The translations under genes and the position numbers were made by a program. DNA of 64,000 nt from assembly GCF_051903065.1 (NCBI RefSeq), contig NZ_CP178438.1; one strand, 5' to 3'. The notes under the pieces were generated by a model. That model did not search any database. It worked only from the letters and a program-made list of their open reading frames with translations, and was not told the origin of the DNA. This stretch comes from Escherichia coli. GTDB taxonomy: Bacteria > Pseudomonadota > Gammaproteobacteria > Enterobacterales > Enterobacteriaceae. Positions 15,477 to 26,924 of this stretch are shown here, piece after piece. The first letter of the stretch is position 1; each line of letters starts with the position of its first letter.

Positions 15477-16065
15477 GCAGCAAACACAGCTGTAGACAAC
15501 GATGAAAAATATCTGTCCTTTGCATTAGTTCTCGCTATCACGATTATGGACAACTTAGTAAAGCTCATCGGCACAGATGGCTTCGTACTTTATACCTACA
15601 CCCTGCAGGACACGGCTACTGCTCGTGCTGTTTTTAATGAATTAGCCAGGCGTCTCAAAAATTTCAATCGTCAGGAGGAGGTCTACACCACCGATTCCCT
15701 CACCTTTCGAATGAAATACATTTACGGTGTTACCCTGTTCGAACATGATAGTAAATCTATCCTTAACCTCTTTGATAAGAAGGGTTATCCGGTATTGAGT
15801 GAATCAGGAGAACCCGGTTCTCTTGATGATATGTATCTTGACATTCAAGCCCGATTACATGGCGGCTACGCCTCAAAAAAGTTTCTTCATTTACATGAAC
15901 ATTGTCTGTTATCTGCACACGTTACCCCGTCTGTGGAAAAGACGCAACGCGGTATCCTGATTAAAGTAGGCAGGAAACTCGTTTCCTTTATCCATGTAGA
16001 TGATGAATCACACAAAACCGATATTTTCAAATCTGTAGTAAATGTTATTAAATCTTGATTCTTTA

Positions 16066-16093
16066 TGCCGGGACACAGCTCCCGGCATTTTTT
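16066..16093 (+). terminator. Hairpin plus T-tract just upstream of the piPolB start
   Basis: tgccggga-cacagc-tcccggca followed by tttttt. Confidence 0.5.
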
Positions 16094-16104
16094 CGGAGTT
16101 AACT

Positions 16105-18705
16105 ATGAGCAATAATTTGCAGGACATCCTCGCTGCCGCCTCGGGGTATCAGTCCGTGACTTCAGAGCCAGCGTTCAATCGTAAAAGACCTAAAACGCTT
16201 GATGATTATCCTGTGATACCACCTGCATCAAAAAAAGTATCTGTTATTTCAAGTGACCTGACACTCCATATCGGTTTTGATACCGAATATGTTTTCAACC
16301 CTGAAACACGACAGAATGATATTCTGTCATATCAGAGTTATGTTGTCTTACCCGATAATACAGGTATATCGAACATTATCTATCCACCTGACTCACAGAA
16401 AAAATCCCGGCTGTCTTTTAAGGAATTTCTCTGTCAAACGATTACACCGCTTCTTGAAACGGGTGTGATTACAAAATGGCCCGGTATTATTAATATATAT
16501 GCGCATTTCATTCGTGCGGATATCGCCTCCTTTGCCAATTTCTGGTCAGACTACAAAATTCTTCTGAAAGGAATACGCGGTACTGTCAGCAGCTTCAAAA
16601 ATCGTTACGGTATCGATTTTGATGAACAGCAGGAACGTCGCGTAAAGACTGAACAGATAATGTTTGACAAACGAACTTCCCCTCCGCGTTGCAGTAACGT
16701 AGCTTTCATCGATACACTGCTTATCACTCCCGGGGGTATGGGTCTGGCTGAATGTGGTGAATTACTGGGTCTTCCCAAACTCACCATTCCTGCACCTTAT
16801 TCCATAACCAATATGCGTGAATATCTTCTGGGCGACAGAGCAGGGTTTGAAGCCTATGCTCTGCGGGATGCCGAGATTGCGGTTCGTTATGCTTTACAGG
16901 TTCGCAATTTTTGCGCCCGGGAGCTGATGATTGATCGTGTCCCCGCCACCATCGGGGCGATGGCAGTTTCACGGTTCACCAAAACACTTAAAGAAAACAA
17001 TATGTCTCCTGAAGTCTGCCTTGGGACACACATTAAAACCCGTGAACTCTGGCTCACGGAGAAACAGGCATTCCGGACGATTAAAAACCCCGCCAGTGTT
17101 CCTTCAAGAGAGTTGTTTGAAACGTTCCCGATCAACTGTTACCACGGCGGACGCAATGAGTGTTTTATGATGGGGGTTACACCGTCTGATCACTGGTATG
17201 ACTACGATCTGGCTGGAGCGTATACCACCGGGCTATTAGATATCCTCACACCCGATTACGGGAACATCCGCCTCAGTAAAAATCCGGACGATTACTGTGG
17301 GCATGTAATGGGATTTGCGCTTGTCACATTTCGGTTCCCGGAATCAGTTCCCTATCCCAGCCTGCCGGTTCGGACCGATCAATATGGGTTATTCTTTCCA
17401 TTAAGTGGCGAATCATGGGCAACGGCACCTGAAATCGAACTTGCTCTGTCGCTCGGGGCAGAGATGACGATCCATAATGGGATCATCGTCCCCTGGATCT
17501 GTGACACCTCCCCACATAACAGCGAATCAACATCGGTGTTTCTTCCCTTTGTTCAACAGGTCCGTGAGAACCGTAATCGCCATATTAAAGGTTCTCTGGA
17601 GGAGAAATTCTGGAAAGAAATTGGCAACTCGCTTTATGGCAAACTTGCTCAGGGCCTTCGCGCCAAAACCGCCTTTGATACTGCCCGTGGATTAAACAGA
17701 TCCCTCCCACCATCATCGGTTACTCAGCCATTCTTTGCTGCGCATGTGACGGGATTTATCCGCGCCGTTGTCGGGGAACTCATGAATGCTTTGCCTTCTG
17801 ATTCATCGGTTGTCAGCGTCACAACCGATGGTTTTTTGACAAATTGCCCACTTGACAAGATAAACATGAGCGGTCCACTGTCTTCCCGCTTCCAGTCGCT
17901 GTGCGATATTGTTGATCCGGGTTCATCAATGTTGACATGTAAGCATGAGGTCAGCCAGCTTATCGCCATGAAAACCCGGGGGCAGTTAACCTATAGAGCT
18001 ATTCAGGGAAAACCTGTTGTTCATGCCAGGGCTGGCGTCAAACCTCCTGCCGATATTCCACGCAGTGACTATAACGACTATATGGTAGATCTTTACCTTA
18101 ATCGTTTACCCGGTCAGACGTTATCCCGAAGTACGTTGATATCAACGCGTGAGATGTGGCTCTCGGAAAGCGATCTGGTATCCCGGGAACAGGATATCCG
18201 TCTTAATCTGGAATTCGATTTCAAACGCCAGCCCGTACAGCCCGCCATGAATGAAGGGCATTTACTGATGTTTTCCCGCCCGTGGGATAATATGGAAGAG
18301 GCTCTGCAGCAACGCTCTCTTTTCGACGACTGGCGGCAAACGCATACACTGAAGACCCTGGCTGACTGGGATGACTGGTGTGATTTTCTCTATTGCCGGA
18401 CGGTGTTTTCTGATATGAAACTAAAAGTCGGAAGCAAACGTAGTGATGATATTTTAGTCAGACTATTTCTCCGGGCGCTGACTCAGTGCCAATGGGGGCT
18501 GATGCTGAAAGATAAAAAAAGTTATTCCTGTAAAGAGGTTGCTGAATGGCTGACGTCAGAAGGCTATTCAGTAACGGTGACTGATGTAAAAAATGCGGTA
18601 AGAGCAAAAATACCCCAAATGAAATTTAGTTCTGTAACACCGCGAATGAAGTCACTGATGGATATCATAGCCCGTAAATATCCGACATTCTGTCTTCCAG
18701 TCTGA
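16105..18705 (+). CDS. Family-B DNA polymerase of the primer-independent (piPolB) type
   Basis: Exo I FDTEY, Exo III YALRD, motif B NSLYGKL, motif C VTTDG, and KTRG in place of KxY; start taken at MSNNLQ after GGAG. Confidence 0.8.
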   Translation: MSNNLQDILAAASGYQSVTSEPAFNRKRPKTLDDYPVIPPASKKVSVISSDLTLHIGFDTEYVFNPETRQNDILSYQSYVVLPDNTGISNIIYPPDSQKKSRLSFKEFLCQTITPLLETGVITKWPGIINIYAHFIRADIASFANFWSDYKILLKGIRGTVSSFKNRYGIDFDEQQERRVKTEQIMFDKRTSPPRCSNVAFIDTLLITPGGMGLAECGELLGLPKLTIPAPYSITNMREYLLGDRAGFEAYALRDAEIAVRYALQVRNFCARELMIDRVPATIGAMAVSRFTKTLKENNMSPEVCLGTHIKTRELWLTEKQAFRTIKNPASVPSRELFETFPINCYHGGRNECFMMGVTPSDHWYDYDLAGAYTTGLLDILTPDYGNIRLSKNPDDYCGHVMGFALVTFRFPESVPYPSLPVRTDQYGLFFPLSGESWATAPEIELALSLGAEMTIHNGIIVPWICDTSPHNSESTSVFLPFVQQVRENRNRHIKGSLEEKFWKEIGNSLYGKLAQGLRAKTAFDTARGLNRSLPPSSVTQPFFAAHVTGFIRAVVGELMNALPSDSSVVSVTTDGFLTNCPLDKINMSGPLSSRFQSLCDIVDPGSSMLTCKHEVSQLIAMKTRGQLTYRAIQGKPVVHARAGVKPPADIPRSDYNDYMVDLYLNRLPGQTLSRSTLISTREMWLSESDLVSREQDIRLNLEFDFKRQPVQPAMNEGHLLMFSRPWDNMEEALQQRSLFDDWRQTHTLKTLADWDDWCDFLYCRTVFSDMKLKVGSKRSDDILVRLFLRALTQCQWGLMLKDKKSYSCKEVAEWLTSEGYSVTVTDVKNAVRAKIPQMKFSSVTPRMKSLMDIIARKYPTFCLPV

Positions 18706-19459: not shown

Positions 19460-20362
19460 ATGGGTAAGCACGATAAACTTGGATATCGACTCGGATTGAT
19501 ATTAACTCGCCTGAACAATGGTGAGTCACTAGCCGTCCGGGAGTTATCTGAGGAATTTAACGTTTGCGAAAAAACTATCCGTCGCGATCTTACTCAGCGC
19601 CTGTCCTATCTTAATCTGATTCGACAAAATGGTCGCTATCGCCTGTCTGACGGTGTTCTCGGTCAACGCAGCAATGCTGATTTACGTCATTTCACGCGCA
19701 TCCTGGGTATTGAAGGGCTGTTCCCTCGCTGGGATGACAGACTACTGAGTATTTTGTTAGGTAACACGAAAAATAACCCGTTTCTGATAAAACAACGTCC
19801 ATACGAAAACTGCGGATCATTCATGTCAATTCTGAATGTATTATCCGATGCCATCCTGTCACAGAAGAAAGTAAATTTTAATTACAAAGATAAAGAGTTT
19901 CGGGCTGTTGAGCCATACAGACTGGTTAATGACAACGGATTGTGGTATCTCGCTGCCGCCCATGACAGTACATTAAAAAGCTTTGTTATCTCATCTGTCA
20001 AAGACGTTTGCATGAGTAATATCTCTTTCAGGATAATCCCCGAAATTAATGAAAAAATAGAAAAGACAGATGGTATCTGGTATAGCGAAGACCTTATCGA
20101 AGTTCTCATTTCAGTTTCCGCACATGTTGCTCCGTGGTTTACCCACCGTCATCTATTGCCAGGACAGGAAATAATTCATACTTCCCGGTCTGGCGATTTA
20201 CTGGTGATATCACGTGTAACACACACAGATCAGATAATGCCTTTAATGAAATACTGGATACCGGATGTCGAAGTAATACAACCGGCCTCAATCCGTCAAC
20301 AACTTGCTGAAGATATACAATCCGCACTGAAACGTTACACCCAGCCAAGTAACGCCCCGTAA
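19460..20362 (+). CDS. WYL-domain transcriptional regulator (HTH-WYL-WCX; YafY/BrxR/CapW-like)
   Basis: N-terminal HTH ([21 protein letters not shown]), central GLWYL signature. Confidence 0.75.
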
Positions 20363-20423
20363 TGACACGGATAATATAATTTTCATTAAGTGCTATTTTT
20401 ATAAGCTAAAAAATGGAGTTACC

Positions 20424-21242
20424 ATGAAAAAATGCCCGGTTCTTCTTGTTGTATCAGGGTTTCTGACCGAAAATGATATATCATGGTTTAACCGAATTAA
20501 AGCAGGGTGTGGCCTTGATGTCAGATACTATAAATGGGAATCGGCAAATCTACTATCCATATTAAGTTCTGACATAGCGAACAAGTGGGGGTTATATACT
20601 CTCTTCCCCCTGAGAACATCTCCTTTATTGTCATCAATCTCCATTCCATTTAAAGCGCGTCAGGCCTGGTATAATGCAACGAAAGCAGCAGTTAATAACA
20701 GAGAAAAATTAGCACACGTAATAAACGAGATATACGTTAAAGAAAAGCGTAATGTGATCATAATGGGTCATTCTTTAGGGACTCGATTAATAAACAATAC
20801 ATTACCCTATATAAAAAATGATAATATTCTCTTAACAATCTCTATGGCCGGAGCCACCCCAATAACAAGTTATACAGAGAACATAATGAAAATGGCTTAC
20901 GGTTCAAAAATGGGGCATTTAAATATCTACAGTGAACATGATAAAGTACTTAACACGATATACCCTCTCGTAGAGTCAGTAACGCCAATTGGGGTTCGGG
21001 AGGTGAGATTCAGACCTGCTCGGGTGATCAACTGGAAGTGGGATATTGGTCACACTGAATATATTACTTCAAACAGGATTGATTCATTAACACACTGGTT
21101 AAATGTTACCTGTGCCGATTTAGCTGATCCAGCCGTAGAAATCACTGACGACGACATGAAATCATTTCATGATATTATTAATCTTGCGAATTTAACATGT
21201 CATAAAAACACTGTCGCACCTAAATTAATATCATTTGAGTAG
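20424..21242 (+). CDS. Putative alpha/beta hydrolase (GHSLG nucleophile elbow)
   Basis: 272 aa, IIMGHSLGTR motif; GGAG RBS; 61 bp downstream of the WYL gene. Confidence 0.55.
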   Translation: MKKCPVLLVVSGFLTENDISWFNRIKAGCGLDVRYYKWESANLLSILSSDIANKWGLYTLFPLRTSPLLSSISIPFKARQAWYNATKAAVNNREKLAHVINEIYVKEKRNVIIMGHSLGTRLINNTLPYIKNDNILLTISMAGATPITSYTENIMKMAYGSKMGHLNIYSEHDKVLNTIYPLVESVTPIGVREVRFRPARVINWKWDIGHTEYITSNRIDSLTHWLNVTCADLADPAVEITDDDMKSFHDIINLANLTCHKNTVAPKLISFE

Positions 21243-21300: not shown

Positions 21301-21372
21301 TTATAGAATTGATATGGGGTGATGCTGCCAACTTACTGATTTAGTGTATGATGGTGTTTTTGAGGTGCTCCA

Positions 21373-21648
21373 GTGGCTTCTGTTTCTATCAGCTGTCCCT
21401 CCTGTTCAGCTACTGAAGGCGTGGTGCGTAACGGTAAAAGTACTGCCGGACATCAGCGCTATCTCTGCTCTCACTGCCGTAAAACATGGCAACTGCAGTT
21501 CACTTACACCGCTTCTCAACCCGGTACGCACCAGAAAATCATTGATATGGCCATGAATGGCGTTGGATGCCGGGCAACCGCCCGCATTATGAGCGTTGGC
21601 CTCAACACGATTTTCCGCCATTTAAAAAACTCAGGCCGCAGTCGGTAA
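21373..21648 (+). CDS. insA: IS1 InsA
   Basis: 91-aa ORF. Confidence 0.85.
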
Positions 21649-22070
21649 CCTCGCGCATACAGCCGGGCAGTGACGTCATCGTCTGCGCGGAAATGGACGA
21701 ACAGTGGGGCTATGTCGGGGCTAAATCGCGCCAGCGCTGGCTGTTTTACGCGTATGACAGGCTCCGGAAGACGGTTGTTGCGCACGTATTCGGTGAACGC
21801 ACTATGGCGACGCTGGGGCGTCTTATGAGCCTGCTGTCACCCTTTGACGTGGTGATATGGATGACGGATGGCTGGCCGCTGTATGAATCCCGCCTGAAGG
21901 GAAAGCTGCACGTAATCAGCAAGCGATATACGCAGCGAATTGAGCGGCATAACCTGAATCTGAGGCAGCACCTGGCACGGCTGGGACGGAAGTCGCTGTC
22001 GTTCTCAAAATCGGTGGAGCTGCATGACAAAGTCATCGGGCATTATCTGAACATAAAACACTATCAATAA
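21567..22070 (+). CDS. insB: IS1 InsB reading frame (expressed as InsAB' by -1 frameshift)
   Basis: 167-aa ORF overlapping insA. Confidence 0.8.
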
Positions 22071-22100
22071 GTTGGAGTCATTACCTTGATATGGATTCGA

Positions 22101-22328
22101 TTAAAAATTTCGTCTAACTCGTTCCCTTATCAAACTTGCCAGCCTTACCCTTCCAGGTGAAATAGTTTCCGTTACAGTTTCAACTCTCAACAAATCACGC
22201 TGTCCGGTTCGGCGACTGACCGCGAAACGCTGACATATATCATTAACCGATACCGTATTACCGGTATACAGTTGAAGTAATATCCAGCACAGCCTTTCTG
22301 CGATCCTTTCACCGCGAGTTTTATACAT
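22101..22328 (-). CDS. Small HTH DNA-binding protein (75 aa)
   Basis: HTH-like VSVNDICQRFAVSRRTGQRDL; GAAGG RBS. Confidence 0.45.
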   Translation of the reverse strand: MYKTRGERIAERLCWILLQLYTGNTVSVNDICQRFAVSRRTGQRDLLRVETVTETISPGRVRLASLIRERVRRNF

Positions 22329-22629
22329 CTGTAAAACCTTCAGTTATCGTCAACGATGACATAGCCCACCTCAAAACCCACATAACTGACTGTATTCATG
22401 AACATTTATTACCGGTGTAATACTGTCGTTGGGGTAATGGATTAACCGTTATCACCCTGCTACAGGAGAATGCTCCATAGGGGGCAAAAACCACGAGGGA
22501 TCTGAGATCCCCCGTGTCTGCACTTGTTTATGCGAACAGCCAGGAAAAAGAGACATCATCTCCATGCTGTGATGCACGCCACATGCAGTAGATTACAAAG
22601 CCGCCCGCTTTCTTCCTGTTCATAACGGG

Positions 22630-23064
22630 TCAACAACTTTCCACAGTTACCGTTACCCGGTAAATCCCCATAGAGAGATACTCCATAAAATTACGCTCCC
22701 ACAGGGACCAGAGTTCATTCCTCTCTGCTGCCAGTGAAATATCCCCAATCAGATAATGGAATACATAATTCCCCGACCAGCAAAAATCAATTTCTTTTTC
22801 CAGCTCAGGGTAGACACGCCCCATATAACTAAAATCTGTGACATAATCAAAATACCATTCATTATTCTTACGGATAAACCGTATTTCAACGGGATGAAAG
22901 CCCCCGGATTCTGCACTGTAGTCCGGATCACGGAAATTAATAACCACTGCCTCAGTTATTTTTTGTAAAACCTGATTTGCCAGAAGAGTAGTAATATGCT
23001 GCTGAAATTCTTTAGTAACAGGCAGAGTTAATCCTGCCTGTTTTAAGGCATATTGGGTTTGCAT
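22630..23064 (-). CDS. Hypothetical protein, possibly DUF2787-like
   Basis: 144 aa; NFRDPDYSAESGGFHPVEI recalled as DUF2787-like; RBS present. Confidence 0.45.
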   Translation of the reverse strand: MQTQYALKQAGLTLPVTKEFQQHITTLLANQVLQKITEAVVINFRDPDYSAESGGFHPVEIRFIRKNNEWYFDYVTDFSYMGRVYPELEKEIDFCWSGNYVFHYLIGDISLAAERNELWSLWERNFMEYLSMGIYRVTVTVESC

Positions 23065-23136
23065 AATAAATTTTCCTTTAGAAAGTAAATAGCGGTGTGT
23101 GGTGATTTCTGGTTGTATAACAGTGCAGGAAATAAA

Positions 23137-23670
23137 TTAATCCTCTGTAATCTTTTCCTGGCTACTGATCGTATTAAGTTTATTCAACCGCTCCCTCCAG
23201 TCCGGGTATAATACATGAGTAAATAACTTCTCTGGATGTGCCTCCAGCAGACATATATCCGGGGAGCGTAAAACAGCAGCCAGAAAACCTGCATTGTTGG
23301 CGCTTGCCCCTTTGAATAGCGGCCTGAATACTCCGGATGAGAAGCCGGTAGCAGGTTGTGTTTCCAGAACGGTTGCAATCTTTGAAAGTGAGATCCAGTC
23401 CTTAGAGAACAACCCTCCACAGCCATTTGCCACCAGACGAAGATAAAGTTCATTGTCCACCTCTGATATCGCCAGTTGCCATGTCAGCATACCACTTGCC
23501 TTAGGACTGATTTTTTCTGCCTGGCCTGTTTCAATGAGCAACTGATAGTCTTTTACATCAGATAATGTTTGTTCATCTGCACTGAGATTTTCATGAATAA
23601 CCTCTGCCTCATTTTTAATCTCCTTCGAAACTGACTCAACATTATTTTTAACTAATTTTGATTTACTCAT
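23137..23670 (-). CDS. Hypothetical protein (177 aa)
   Basis: ORF with RBS. Confidence 0.45.
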   Translation of the reverse strand: MSKSKLVKNNVESVSKEIKNEAEVIHENLSADEQTLSDVKDYQLLIETGQAEKISPKASGMLTWQLAISEVDNELYLRLVANGCGGLFSKDWISLSKIATVLETQPATGFSSGVFRPLFKGASANNAGFLAAVLRSPDICLLEAHPEKLFTHVLYPDWRERLNKLNTISSQEKITED

Positions 23671-23695
23671 TTTGCGTTCCTGGTTTTGCTTGTGT

Positions 23696-24067
23696 TTAAT
23701 AGCGTGATTCGGCCATAGAAATTAATAAATCAATACCCTTCAGAGGGCAATCGGGGTGAAATAACAGATAAATACCGTTCCCGTTATCTTCCGTAACAGA
23801 AAGCATCAGGTAATAGTCATCTGTCAGACGGACTACAAATTCTGGATTTGCAATTAACTGATGAATCACATTTAATACCTGCGCTTTAATATCTTCAGGT
23901 ACATCATCGGGCTCGACATATATTAATGTCACCCCGACTTCATCCCAGAAACTCATTGCAGAGTATTCATCTTCAAATGGGAGTACCAGCTCTGTTTTCA
24001 ACAGACTCATTACTGACTCCGGAAGAGATAGTGATGGCAGACTTTGCCAGTTAGCGATAAACTTCAT
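23696..24067 (-). CDS. Hypothetical protein (123 aa)
   Basis: ORF with AAGGAT RBS. Confidence 0.45.
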   Translation of the reverse strand: MKFIANWQSLPSLSLPESVMSLLKTELVLPFEDEYSAMSFWDEVGVTLIYVEPDDVPEDIKAQVLNVIHQLIANPEFVVRLTDDYYLMLSVTEDNGNGIYLLFHPDCPLKGIDLLISMAESRY

Positions 24068-24163
24068 TGTTCAATCCTTATAAGTAAAAAACCCCGATAC
24101 AATTAACGTATCGGGGTTTTTATACATGCGCATAACTATTATTTACAGTTATTGGTTTTCTAT

Positions 24164-24406
24164 TTAAATTCTTTCATAATATCCACAGTCCATACAGATA
24201 AGAACTGGAGCATTATTCCTTTCACACTGTTCAAGGAATCCAAATAGTTTTTTAATAGCCTTAATAATTTCTTTCAGTATTTCAGGTAAAAACTCCAGGC
24301 TAATATACCCAGAGCGTTTATTATCGGTTATTGATGGCAGTTTTCCTGCTGAACTTATCAATGTATTACAACTGCCACACTGTGGGCATTTTAAATGCAT
24401 CCTCAT
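24164..24406 (-). CDS. Small zinc-ribbon protein (CPQCGSC ... CMDCG)
   Basis: 80 aa with two CxxC pairs. Confidence 0.45.
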   Translation of the reverse strand: MRMHLKCPQCGSCNTLISSAGKLPSITDNKRSGYISLEFLPEILKEIIKAIKKLFGFLEQCERNNAPVLICMDCGYYERI

Positions 24407-24436
24407 TCTCCATATTTATAGTTTGCTAAAAAGTAG

Positions 24437-25636
24437 TCACATCTGCTTCGTAGCCGCAGTATTCAGAAGCAGGTCAGTCACTCCCTGCCCTGTCTGACGC
24501 ATACGTTCCGGTGTTAATTTCGCGTAACGTTCTGTACTCTGAATACTGGCATGCGCCAGTTGGGCTTTAACGTCATACAGGCTGAATTGACCACTCGAAA
24601 CCAGTAAAGAGGCAACAGAATGACGTGTGGTGTGAAAACAGACTTCATTCTTGTCTATACCGCACTGTGCCAGTATTTTTTCATATGCCCATCGGGGTTC
24701 CGATATCGGTTTTCCATTATCCTTAATGGCGAACAGATACGGATTACTGCCAACTCGTGGGATAGCATCAATAATCGATAATGCGGCATCGCTTAGATAT
24801 ACCGTCCGACTGCGACCATTTTTTGTATAAGGAATGAACAGAGTACGATTGGCCCGGTCGATATGTTCATGCCTGACATTAAGCATTTCTGATTTGCGTG
24901 TACCGGTTAACAACAACATGGCTATCAATCCCCCGGCAGCTTTGTTGGGATATTGGGTAGCAGCGTCAAGAATGCGCCTGATCTCATCAGCATCAAAAAA
25001 GCGCGTCCGCTGATTATTCTCTTTCAGTAAAGGGATCTTATCGGCTTCATTCTTTTCCAGCACATCCTGTCGCAACGCATAACGCCCCATCGTTTTCAGA
25101 ATAGCAAGGGCTCTGTTACAGGTAGACGGCGCATATTGCTGCCCGTGAATACGCCCCTCCAGCATGTCAAACAGCACCTGTTGTATCTCTCTGGCCCTGA
25201 GATCGCAGTAACGTATCTTTCCCAGACGAGGTTCAATGTATTGCGTGAAACGCTGAACATCCTTATCCCAGGACTTTTTATGGCGCTTGATGAACGGAAC
25301 ATAGGTCTGGTGAAAAAACTCACTAAGCGTTGGCATCGCACGATAATTATCGCGCTCTGCCTTGGGGTCATTTCCAAGTGCAATCGCCTCCTTATGACGG
25401 CGAGCTATCTGGCGAGCTGTCCCCACATCAATTTCAGGGAATCTGCCAATACTGATACTTTTTTTGGTACCGTGGAATGTGTAGCGCAGGAGGAAACGTT
25501 TGTTACCCGTTCGACCTGAGAGACATTTGAGGCCAATAACTTCGGTATCAGATACCTCAAGCTCTGTAGATCGGGTATCTGTGTTTGCCGGAAGGGCTTT
25601 GATGGATGAATTGGTGAATCGGAAGGATTTTTGCAT
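24437..25636 (-). CDS. P4-type tyrosine integrase with N-terminal arm-binding domain
   Basis: R...HxxR...Y catalytic residues (HTTRHSVAS, TERYAKL); start at MQKSF after GAGGA. Confidence 0.85.
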   Translation of the reverse strand: MQKSFRFTNSSIKALPANTDTRSTELEVSDTEVIGLKCLSGRTGNKRFLLRYTFHGTKKSISIGRFPEIDVGTARQIARRHKEAIALGNDPKAERDNYRAMPTLSEFFHQTYVPFIKRHKKSWDKDVQRFTQYIEPRLGKIRYCDLRAREIQQVLFDMLEGRIHGQQYAPSTCNRALAILKTMGRYALRQDVLEKNEADKIPLLKENNQRTRFFDADEIRRILDAATQYPNKAAGGLIAMLLLTGTRKSEMLNVRHEHIDRANRTLFIPYTKNGRSRTVYLSDAALSIIDAIPRVGSNPYLFAIKDNGKPISEPRWAYEKILAQCGIDKNEVCFHTTRHSVASLLVSSGQFSLYDVKAQLAHASIQSTERYAKLTPERMRQTGQGVTDLLLNTAATKQM

Positions 25637-25716
25637 ATTTATCCTCATGTATCTGATTGATATCATGAAAATAATATATATCTGAAGGTGTTTTTATTAC
25701 GGGGCAGGATTGAAGA

Positions 25717-26457
25717 ATGGAAAAGCTATTAGACGCGTACAAACGGATATTGCAGGAAGTTAACGCCCAGTCATTTAACCTGAATGAGGATAAATACTCA
25801 GGCGTATTTTTACCCGTACCCTTTGAAGAATACTGGCATTCACCGGTAAAAATCATGCTGGTTGGACGTGAAACCGCAGGCTGGAATACGCTGAATGGTA
25901 AGAATACGATATCACGGGTGTTGGGACTTATACCTGACGTTACCATCGGGCAAGTGGTTGAAGAAGCTGTAGATCGTTACAGGAAACATCTTCCGGTACA
26001 AAATTATGGCACCGCCAACCTCAAATCACGTAGCCGCTTCACGCAATATCATTTCAGGCTGGCCCGGGAGCTTAATATCCCTCCTCAGGCTATCGTGTAT
26101 GCCAATCTACTGGCGTGGGATTACGACGGACTGACCCCTCTCAATCGCCCTCAAAATGAAGTGCAGGAAGTTATATTAGCCTCGCTGAAGCTGCTGGCGG
26201 TACAAATTAAACACCTTGAGCCTGATTTCATGATCTTTGCATCCGGAGCCCGGAGAACAGACTACATCATTAAACAGGTGCTTACTGAGCTGGGCGGTTA
26301 TGAGACTTCTTCAGTCATTCCGGGGAAGCTGTGGGAGTTCAAAACAGGTAATACAATCTGTTTCAGAATTGCCCATCCAAGGGCTATGCGCGGACACCAG
26401 AAGTACAGAGATGAGGTGATTGCACGAATTAAGCAACTTTGTACTAAGGGCGGCTAG
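25717..26457 (+). CDS. Hypothetical protein; weak resemblance to uracil-DNA glycosylase superfamily motifs
   Basis: 246-aa ORF; VGRETAGW and AHPRAM segments loosely resemble UDG motifs A/B. Confidence 0.4.
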   Translation: MEKLLDAYKRILQEVNAQSFNLNEDKYSGVFLPVPFEEYWHSPVKIMLVGRETAGWNTLNGKNTISRVLGLIPDVTIGQVVEEAVDRYRKHLPVQNYGTANLKSRSRFTQYHFRLARELNIPPQAIVYANLLAWDYDGLTPLNRPQNEVQEVILASLKLLAVQIKHLEPDFMIFASGARRTDYIIKQVLTELGGYETSSVIPGKLWEFKTGNTICFRIAHPRAMRGHQKYRDEVIARIKQLCTKGG

Positions 26458-26633
26458 AGCATTACAACTTGCTCAGCAGGCCCCCCTTCCCGGAAGAGTA
26501 CCGGAAAACAGGCAAAGCGGCCTGGTTCTCTATGCTGGAGGCGACACGTTCAATTCGGCATTGCCAGGCTGTAGATTGCAGCTCATTGCACCCCGTGCGC
26601 ACAGGATATGCACAGGGCGTGAATTGCATGCAC

Positions 26634-26657
26634 AAAAAAACCACCCGAAGGTGGTTT
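26634..26657 (-). terminator. Rho-independent terminator of the glyW-cysT-leuZ operon
   Basis: ccacccgaaggtgg hairpin followed by T-run on minus strand. Confidence 0.6.
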
Positions 26658-26698
26658 CACGACACTGCTTATTGCTTTGATTATTCTGATGTTTCCCA

Positions 26699-26785
26699 TG
26701 GTACCCGGAGCGGGACTTGAACCCGCACAGCGCGAACGCCGAGGGATTTTAAATCCCTTGTGTCTACCGATTCCACCATCCGGGC
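26699..26785 (-). tRNA. leuZ: tRNA-Leu (anticodon UAA)
   Basis: 87-nt match to recalled E. coli leuZ, CCA end encoded. Confidence 0.9.
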
Positions 26786-26797
26786 TCGGGAAGAAAG

Positions 26798-26871
26798 TGG
26801 AGGCGCGTTCCGGAGTCGAACCGGACTAGACGGATTTGCAATCCGCTACATAACCGCTTTGTTAACGCGCC
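26798..26871 (-). tRNA. cysT: tRNA-Cys (GCA)
   Basis: 74-nt match to recalled cysT. Confidence 0.9.
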
Positions 26872-26924
26872 AAATTCTTCAGGCCTTTCAGCCAGACATC
26901 CGCTGACGCCGATGTCTTTTAAAC

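Follow-up and report, generated by a model that had tools for sequence, protein, structure and literature searches.

A predicted three-gene operon beside the integrase of an Escherichia coli pipolin

Pipolins are genomic islands whose hallmark is piPolB, a primer-independent family-B DNA polymerase. In the available text of Mateo-Caceres et al. (NAR 2024; PMC11551731), the gammaproteobacterial pipolin core consists of the integrase IntSXT, a DUF2787 protein, a WYL protein and two orphan proteins, with function left unassigned; pipolins are described there as defence islands without recognised transfer genes that nevertheless move between genera, and rare "piPolB-less, pipolin-like islands" are mentioned. 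E. coli pipolins insert at a Leu-tRNA gene, as stated in the available part of Flament-Simon et al. (Sci Rep 2020; PMC7385651). Here we analysed a 64,000-nucleotide (nt) stretch of an E. coli chromosome (contig NZ_CP178438.1; hereafter the window) that carries such a pipolin, and focused on four small minus-strand genes at 22,630–24,406 beside its integrase, namely a Zn-ribbon gene (ZnR), p123, p177 and a DUF2787 gene. At a probability of roughly 35%, we propose that the last three of these, called the trio below, form a housekeeping module that is gated by transcriptional read-through, coupled to the integrase gene (int), and assists or controls integrase-dependent steps.

As far as the available text of the two papers describes the gammaproteobacterial pipolin core, the element, insertion site, genes and gene order are the same as ours, and p123 and p177 most likely correspond to the two "orphan" core genes of that literature. 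The cassette, its conservation and its unassigned function are already contained in the available text of PMC11551731. That text and the corresponding part of PMC7385651 report no terminator gating the trio, no Zn-ribbon gene and no 75-amino-acid (aa) helix-turn-helix (HTH) gene; nor do they report the obligate pairing of p123 with p177, an acidic hallmark, a p177 fold, or the frequency with which DUF927 or VapE takes the place of piPolB on this backbone, Betaproteobacteria included. New here are the conserved terminator gate, the ZnR gene missed in annotation together with the HTH gene (HTH75), p123 and p177 as paired new families, and the backbone with DUF927 or VapE.

In phage lambda, the xis–int module has the tI terminator after int, and AlpA or Xis genes adjoin P4-like integrases. 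The pipolin locus resembles these modules in the tight linkage of small genes to a tyrosine integrase, in a terminator straight after the int unit, in a winged-helix-type candidate partner, and in the order p177 (then DUF2787) then int, found in 24 of the 80 loci of the census described below. It differs in that its proteins resemble Xis, AlpA and HTH_17 proteins neither in sequence nor, with any confidence, in structure, in that p177 is larger and, in E. coli, acidic, and in that three proteins are involved rather than one. The Gamma-Mobile-Trio (GMT; NCBIfam NF040693) comprises the tyrosine recombinase GmtY and two conserved partners, with defence cargo. It is alike in concept, since a small invariant set with a tyrosine recombinase defines gammaproteobacterial islands with variable defence cargo, but it is non-homologous: the integrase scored only E 0.0087 and 15.3 bits against GmtY (cutoff 340), and p123, p177 and DUF2787 have no NCBIfam match, which places our locus outside GMT. 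Leading-region or entry cassettes of conjugative elements encode ArdA, ArdB/KlcA, PsiB, SSB and RadC. They share with the pipolin cassette small acidic proteins, an occasional RadC neighbour and a presumed coupling of expression to an early function, whereas the pipolin cassette is nearly absent from plasmids and absent from phage records. For VSP-II of Vibrio cholerae, home of the DUF2787 protein VC0508, the comparison is by description only, and the published description names no piPolB, p123 or p177.

The four small genes and their protein families

The four genes follow a tyrosine integrase encoded on the minus strand at 24,437–25,666 (Pfam Phage_integrase, 8.5e-24), whose Arm-DNA-bind_3 N-terminal domain (2.9e-14) is P4-like and which corresponds to "IntSXT" in pipolin nomenclature; RefSeq places its start at 25,636. 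The first small open reading frame (ORF) begins 30 nt past the integrase stop (24,437). In the order of transcription, the genes are ZnR (24,164–24,406), p123 (23,696–24,067), p177 (23,137–23,670) and DUF2787 (22,630–23,064), all on the minus strand. An earlier note made from the letters of this DNA had given the same coordinates, which agree exactly with the ORF list, and its description of four co-oriented, integrase-proximal genes of unassignable function was borne out by profile searches in Pfam, NCBIfam, PADLOC, PHROG and the Protein Data Bank (PDB). None of the four proteins matched an NCBIfam model or PADLOC-DB v2, in which only the neighbouring WYL and HTH proteins reached WYL models, and the PHROG families of the small proteins are of unknown function.

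We compared the four ORFs with their relatives in other genomes. Orthologues are intact and keep their order in Enterobacter, an enterobacterial contig and Plesiomonas, and ribosome-binding sites and their spacing are kept across loci. Pairwise ratios of nonsynonymous to synonymous substitution (dN/dS) were 0.23 for ZnR, 0.14–0.26 for p123, 0.11–0.21 for p177, 0.16 for DUF2787 and 0.04 for the integrase. By these sequence comparisons, all four ORFs are real genes under purifying selection. The block was present in 324 of 5,426 complete E. coli genomes, every time on the chromosome. In enterotoxigenic E. coli (ETEC) H10407, DUF2787 and p123 carry nonsense mutations (L002, 20,548–20,979 and 21,614–22,033) and the island is retained, so that the trio is not needed to keep the island integrated. 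A P2-like prophage is integrated adjoining the pipolin of this strain, which, together with the premature stops, makes H10407 a poor model strain for the cassette. These stops, and the omission of the Zn-ribbon ORF from most RefSeq genomes, could be taken to mean that the genes are chance ORFs or decaying remnants without present function; we give this explanation almost no credence, as it is contradicted by purifying selection on all four genes, by orthologues intact over genera and classes, by the high-confidence AlphaFold2 (AF2) models of p177 and DUF2787, and by the conserved ribosome-binding sites and spacing.

The core has not evolved as one block. Between positions 22,630–26,457 of the window and the Enterobacter locus L012, synonymous divergence (dS) was 0.10 for the ORF resembling uracil-DNA glycosylase (UDG), 0.62 for int, 1.06 for ZnR, 1.05 for p123, 0.85 for p177 and 0.55 for DUF2787, and this roughly 10-fold variation points to recombination breakpoints within the "conserved" module. 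Within E. coli, p177 exists in two or more allelic types, one at 99% and another at about 70% identity.

The first gene of the predicted operon, p123, encodes a small acidic protein of 123 aa with an isoelectric point (pI) of 4.1. The family is uniformly acidic, with a median pI of 4.38 and a median net charge of −11.5. An exhaustive profile search retrieved 174 clusters among 1.84 billion representatives, nearly all of them stand-alone proteins of roughly 90–150 aa, and even a 54-sequence profile found no match in Pfam or the PDB. In some loci without a detectable p123, another acidic ORF overlaps the p177 start. A 182-aa protein of Aeromonas and a 146-aa protein of Pseudomonas, both encoded upstream, are at best doubtful p123 homologues, as the hhalign probability was at most 3.5% and they have only a D-x-G-x-G-I hairpin motif and the gene position in common with p123.

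For p177 (177 aa), the AF2 model shows disorder in residues 1–38 and reaches a predicted local distance difference test score (pLDDT) of about 90 in residues 42–171. The modelled core of about 130 aa consists of three strands followed by a helix-helix-helix-hairpin motif, which weakly suggests a winged-helix-like fold; a Foldseek search of the PDB with the model returned nothing significant. Family members share a basic arm at the N terminus, disordered tails that are charged, and the near-invariant motifs GGLFSKEW and SxNNAGFLAAxLR. The E. coli protein has a pI of 5.3 (core, 5.4). A 24-sequence profile matched nothing in Pfam or among PDB sequences, and a prenyltransferase match (E 0.049) located in the disordered tail was disregarded. 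On the basis of sequence, p123 and p177 are classified as two new protein families that form an obligate pair.

The last gene of the trio encodes a DUF2787 protein of 144 aa, which belongs to Pfam PF10980 (137.5 bits, cutoff 27; profile positions 2–126 of 126). Its model (pLDDT 92) shows the same beta-sheet fold as the solved family member VC0508 of V. cholerae VSP-II, the sole DUF2787 match, itself without known function. The family has invariant residues (His, Glu, Arg, Asp, Lys and aromatics) that may line a ligand pocket or form an active site. DUF2787 genes also lie upstream of integrases elsewhere, in the orders DUF2787-X-RadC-int (EC958, Salmonella) and p177-DUF2787-int (Aeromonas). A different DUF2787 paralogue occurs, without the rest of the trio, in about 627 other E. 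coli genomes, including the ST131 strain EC958 (L097, 5,825–7,252), and in Salmonella and Providencia, in a block of DUF2787, a 153–177-aa protein, RadC and a short integrase. The middle protein of this DUF2787–RadC block is Cys-peptidase-like in Salmonella and Providencia (L008, L010). Papain-like proteins recur after DUF2787, as LRAT proteins in 12 of 80 loci and as the Cys-peptidase-like proteins of these two genera.

The Zn-ribbon gene encodes 78–80 aa. The second ATG, at 24,400, is the more likely start: it is preceded at 7 nt by a GGAG, it coincides with the start of the Plesiomonas orthologue, and it gives a protein of 78 aa, the length of the PHROG profile. Two CxxC pairs (CPxCG and CxxCG) flank a coiled-coil-like amphipathic helix, which resembles designed coiled coils. 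Orthologues at 64, 60 and 42% identity all keep both pairs, as expected for a zinc ribbon, and the score against Pfam Zn_Ribbon_YjdM was 20.3, below the cutoff of 30.8. The ORF is missing from most RefSeq annotations of E. coli. ZnR was found in seven of the 80 species-level loci, all in Enterobacterales, and in the Plesiomonas pipolin, and from this distribution it appears limited to enterobacterial and Plesiomonas pipolins. The expectation that the four genes are conserved as a set accordingly holds for p123, p177 and DUF2787, which are widespread, and fails for the Zn-ribbon gene.

The terminator ahead of p123 and the transcription layout

Between ZnR and p123, an inverted repeat (I2) at 24,087–24,121 on the minus strand is predicted to fold into an intrinsic terminator or attenuator, AAAAACCCCGATAC-7 nt-GTATCGGGGTTTTTT, with a folding energy of −29 kcal/mol and a z-score of −5.5, and no second copy was found in the window. 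About 20 nt separate its end from the p123 start codon, and the p123 ribosome-binding site begins about 10 nt past its T-run. Hairpin and T-run are kept in four genera (E. coli and three others) with diverged flanks and two compensatory base-pair changes. Across loci, a GC-rich hairpin with a T-run precedes the p123 start by 19–26 nt (one at 34 nt) in 37 of 55 cases. Among 805 control ORF starts from these loci, only 10 have one (Fisher p 5e-42, a value that overstates independence as the loci are related; the unrelated stem sequences are the stronger argument). The hairpins come from Enterobacterales, Vibrionales, Aeromonadales, Alteromonadales and Oceanospirillales and comprise 29 different sequences. 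In most of the loci that lack one, p123 is oriented divergently from an integrase, with some 450 nt of upstream sequence to itself; the hairpin is missing from a few further loci too.

A strong terminator at this position separates two units, int–ZnR and p123–p177–DUF2787. The single four-gene operon proposed in the earlier note is thus not upheld, since the conserved terminator sits between its first and second genes. Its short spacers remain for p123–p177 (25 nt) and p177–DUF2787 (72 nt) and do not extend to ZnR–p123 (96 nt). In our reading of the sequence, int and ZnR form a transcription unit of their own upstream of the terminator, whereas the other three genes, co-oriented and without an internal terminator, are predicted to be a three-gene operon. 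Across loci, the p123–p177 gap is −23 to about 130 nt (most −8 to 58), or about 285–430 nt with a YkvA gene in between, and the p177–DUF2787 gap is −4 to 125 nt; a terminator-like hairpin within 60 nt past the stop was found for one of 57 p123 genes and none of 87 p177 genes. Gene junctions this short, or even overlapping, hint that the three products may work jointly. At the end of the three-gene unit, a further terminator-like hairpin with a T-run was located by a terminator scan and folding at 22,492–22,516 (minus), about 115 nt past the DUF2787 stop, and 12 of 55 loci have a comparable element after DUF2787.

We also searched the interval between ZnR and p123 for promoters. No sigma-70 promoter reaching 9 of 12 matches was found there; a TATAAA lies directly ahead of the stem, and a convincing −35 element was not seen. 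Since the space from the terminator to the p123 ribosome-binding site leaves no room for a promoter, the trio would be expressed by read-through or antitermination of int transcripts. Apart from the terminator palindrome, a search for local repeats in the window returned nothing, and a search for shared DNA motifs, iterons or operators near the cassette in 88 loci returned only tRNA fragments and AT-rich words.

Downstream of the second hairpin lies HTH75 (22,101–22,328, minus), a stand-alone 75-aa HTH protein of HTH_DeoR/HTH_11-like type with Pfam and PADLOC WYL-type HTH matches. The layout is therefore int–ZnR, terminator, p123–p177–DUF2787, terminator, HTH75. HTH75 shares 80% identity with the 82-aa ORF that takes its place in Enterobacter (HTH_DeoR, 1.9e-5). 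It is a fifth co-oriented backbone gene, missed in the earlier note and unannotated in RefSeq, and is a candidate local regulator.

Distribution of the cassette and the island that carries it

To survey the neighbourhood of the cassette, one genome per species was scanned with the p177 profile, which yielded 80 loci spanning Gammaproteobacteria and Betaproteobacteria (Massilia, Telluria, Noviherbaspirillum and Pseudoduganella). In 50 of them p123 lies upstream of p177 on the same strand, with a YkvA/DUF1232-like gene between the two in 14, and DUF2787 directly follows p177 in 45. A tyrosine recombinase was found upstream on the same strand within 5 kb of p177 in 45 loci and directly downstream in 24. 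Also recorded near p177 were WYL genes (30 loci), piPolB within 10 kb (25), the DUF927 primase-helicase (15), LRAT-like genes (12), ZnR (7) and VapE (3). In distant loci anchored on p123, p177 follows and adjoins an Arm-DNA-bind_3 integrase in three of three cases. A search of 72,556 plasmids found relatives of p177 on two, of which one is conjugative, and a search of 50,697 phage records found none. These findings indicate that the constant partner of the cassette is a tyrosine integrase, not a replicase or cargo, and that the cassette is element backbone rather than cargo.

The replicase on this shared backbone varies, being DUF927 or VapE in 18 of 80 loci against piPolB in 25, and looks like a swappable module. 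Sister islands with DUF927 keep the IntSXT-like integrase, p123 and p177, in some cases with DUF2787, LRAT and WYL genes; in them, the primase-helicase lies beside a second integrase in the place of piPolB, and no piPolB was found within 10 kb. Such islands occur in Edwardsiella, Enterobacter and relatives (L004, L023–L033), in Vibrio (L003, L006, L007), and in Massilia and Telluria (L076, L088–L092). Two Vibrio islands with the same backbone differ in their cargo between the integrase and the terminator ahead of p123 (L003, 7,273–9,201; L006, 6,789–9,212), which is an HATPase_c_3 protein in one and a 512-aa protein with a D12-class methyltransferase in the other. In these islands, the interval looks like a cargo hotspot.

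The constant presence of some replicase module beside the trio, whatever its type, raises the question of whether the trio is an accessory of replication, partition or transfer, with p177 binding an origin or transfer site and recruiting the element replicase or helper machinery and with p123 and DUF2787 as cofactors. Pipolins cross genera without known transfer genes, as described in the available text of PMC11551731, so that backbone genes of unknown role are transfer candidates, and the two plasmid occurrences, one of them conjugative, and the DNA-binder-like architecture of the p177 model would fit. This explanation is nevertheless quite unlikely. The trio is linked to the att-proximal integrase and not to the replicase block, which travels with the second integrase on either side and in either orientation; neither iterons nor a conserved DNA motif were found near the cassette, and the trio resembles none of the Rep, ParB, relaxase or relaxosome accessory families.

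The island in the window is the E. coli pipolin inserted at tRNA-Leu (leuZ), and the four genes belong to its conserved backbone proximal to the attachment site (att). The chromosome around it contains glyW–cysT–leuZ, pgsA, uvrC and uvrY. The tRNA-Leu gene (leuZ, anticodon TAA) occupies 26,699–26,785 on the minus strand, as given by ARAGORN, Rfam and the annotation of a RefSeq genome identical over this stretch; the island extends leftwards from the tRNA-Leu 3′ end, which it touches at 26,699. No second copy of the tRNA-proximal att sequence (attL) was found in window positions 1–30,000, and the distal island end is probably beyond coordinate 1, outside the window. An Rfam scan of 21,900–26,900 matched tRNAs alone.

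The annotation of this RefSeq genome lists an IS1, a DUF726 hydrolase paired with a WYL regulator, a "DNA polymerase type-B family protein", a second integrase (IntP2) accompanied by a small excisionase-like HTH gene, and Type I restriction–modification cargo. The polymerase name corresponds to piPolB at 16,042–18,705 (plus), an ORF of 866–887 aa by which the element qualifies, on sequence, as a pipolin; pipolins of Enterobacter, Citrobacter and Buttiauxella have homologues in the corresponding place. The core synteny of gammaproteobacterial pipolins was also observed: DUF2787, WYL and orphan genes lie with the IntSXT-type integrase close to where the island is inserted, and piPolB has an IntP2-type integrase and an excisionase nearby. 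IntP2 has its own excisionase-like HTH gene, and the att-proximal integrase has no annotated excisionase. The left part of the window contains cargo, including the Type I restriction–modification genes, an M48 peptidase gene and a YecA-like gene. Between the integrase and the tRNA, a 246-aa ORF divergent from int (25,717–26,457, plus) is called a type-4 UDG in the available pipolin literature (PMC7385651). It had no match in Pfam, NCBIfam or PDB sequences, and its versions in the E. coli and Enterobacter pipolins share 96% identity (dS 0.10).

On the other side of the cassette, an IS1 insertion (approximately 21,318–22,085; insA, insB, terminal repeat and annotation) lies between the cassette and the DUF726/WYL pair, 15 nt past the HTH75 stop. 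It is outside the cassette and absent from H10407-type pipolins. The WYL-domain regulator, a pipolin core member with HTH-WYL-WCX architecture (19,460–20,362, plus; Pfam WYL, WCX and HTH_DeoR, PADLOC WYL), is convergent with the cassette and is followed by a DUF726/LCAT-like alpha/beta hydrolase, so that the pair spans 19,460–21,242 (plus) and may be a WYL-controlled two-gene cargo or defence candidate. At this position, the Enterobacter pipolin has a GTPase gene and a 135-aa gene instead.

WYL regulators often control defence systems. The one adjoining the cassette is among the observations that would fit a defence, abortive-infection or addiction module, in which DUF2787 or a partner would be the effector, p177 the sensor and p123 the antidote, with killing or arrest upon phage infection or element loss. 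The enzyme-like invariant His, Glu, Asp and Lys residues of DUF2787, the papain-like proteins that recur after it, the antitoxin–toxin-like layout of an acidic protein with a second protein, and a tight attenuation that would suit a toxic product point the same way, as does the description of pipolins as defence islands in the available text of PMC11551731. We regard this as very unlikely, because PADLOC-DB has no match for the trio, because the trio is constant where defence systems are normally swappable cargo, and because H10407 lost DUF2787 together with p123, the putative antidote, and survived. In the available text of PMC11551731, a screen with DefenseFinder and PADLOC likewise placed these genes in the core, not in defence.

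Possible role of the trio

We propose that the trio is an element-housekeeping module. Lying downstream of int, it would be expressed only by read-through or antitermination of transcripts from the int promoter, and its level would then be low and coupled to integrase expression. Within the module, p177 may be a nucleic-acid- or integrase-binding factor with SxNNAGFLAAxLR as its putative recognition helix, the acidic p123 may be its partner or modulator, and DUF2787 may be a small ligand-binding or enzymatic subunit. Together they would steer the integrase, either in the direction of excision versus integration or in the handling of the excised circle, and ZnR would be a lineage-specific add-on co-expressed with int. 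In favour of the link to the integrase are the DUF2787 genes found upstream of integrases in other gene arrangements, and the excisionase-like gene that IntP2 has and that is not annotated for the att-proximal integrase.

Several observations weigh against this proposal. Known excisionases are small and basic, whereas E. coli p177 is acidic, and none of the three proteins matched Xis, AlpA or HTH_17 models, so that they do not fall within the known directionality factors. The evidence from the model for the p177 fold is weak, and the trio is dispensable for island retention in H10407. Transcription of the trio might also begin at a promoter whose start site lies within the hairpin. Finally, the putative recognition helix barely varies between elements with different att sites, and the loci showed no DNA motif in common near the cassette; a conserved host or protein target fits this better than att-site DNA.

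Such a target, in the form of a conserved host protein bound by the invariant p177 helix, would also suit an establishment or anti-defence module, in which int and the trio are co-expressed on entry into a naive cell, p123 acts as a DNA mimic or inhibitor, and p177 with DUF2787 neutralises restriction or immunity. Known DNA-mimic anti-restriction proteins are acidic, and p123 is uniformly very acidic (pI about 4.1–4.4). The predicted read-through would couple the trio to int; the small genes evolve faster than int (dN/dS 0.14–0.26 against 0.04), with at least two p177 allelic types in E. coli; and RadC, which is common in entry and anti-restriction gene clusters, is sometimes a neighbour of DUF2787 and p177. 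However, no sequence likeness to known anti-defence families (ArdA, ArdB/KlcA, Ocr, PsiB and others) was found that would make any of these proteins a member, and no structural neighbour was found among solved anti-defence proteins. The genes are absent from the 50,697 phage records and present in two plasmid records only, and a gene order fixed over two proteobacterial classes is backbone-like, unlike fast-turnover counter-defence cargo. An anti-defence role, which the earlier note had raised beside a regulatory one, is unlikely, and a housekeeping module acting on integrase-dependent steps is the reading we prefer.

A broader interpretation, which we put forward as doubtful, is that p123–p177(–DUF2787) is a previously unrecognised system that defines a superfamily of integrase islands wider than pipolins, with a universally conserved terminator/antiterminator switch about 20 nt upstream and a new step of the element life cycle. 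The replicase (piPolB, the DUF927 primase or VapE) may then be interchangeable and not a hallmark, and the step may involve, for instance, directionality or transfer factors of a new class, or a new way of countering defence, in defence islands so far regarded as transfer-less.

Pipolins are widespread carriers of defence genes and have, beyond their integrases, no recognised genes for transfer, regulation or directionality. The trio is the most constant part of the islands besides the integrase, persists when a primase-helicase replaces the hallmark polymerase, and includes in p123 and p177 two sizeable families missing from Pfam. The terminator immediately ahead of the operon provides a concrete regulatory hypothesis. 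If the trio does control excision, establishment or transfer, it would explain how defence islands are mobilised in Enterobacterales, Vibrio, Aeromonas and beyond, and it would be a better marker than piPolB for finding such islands.

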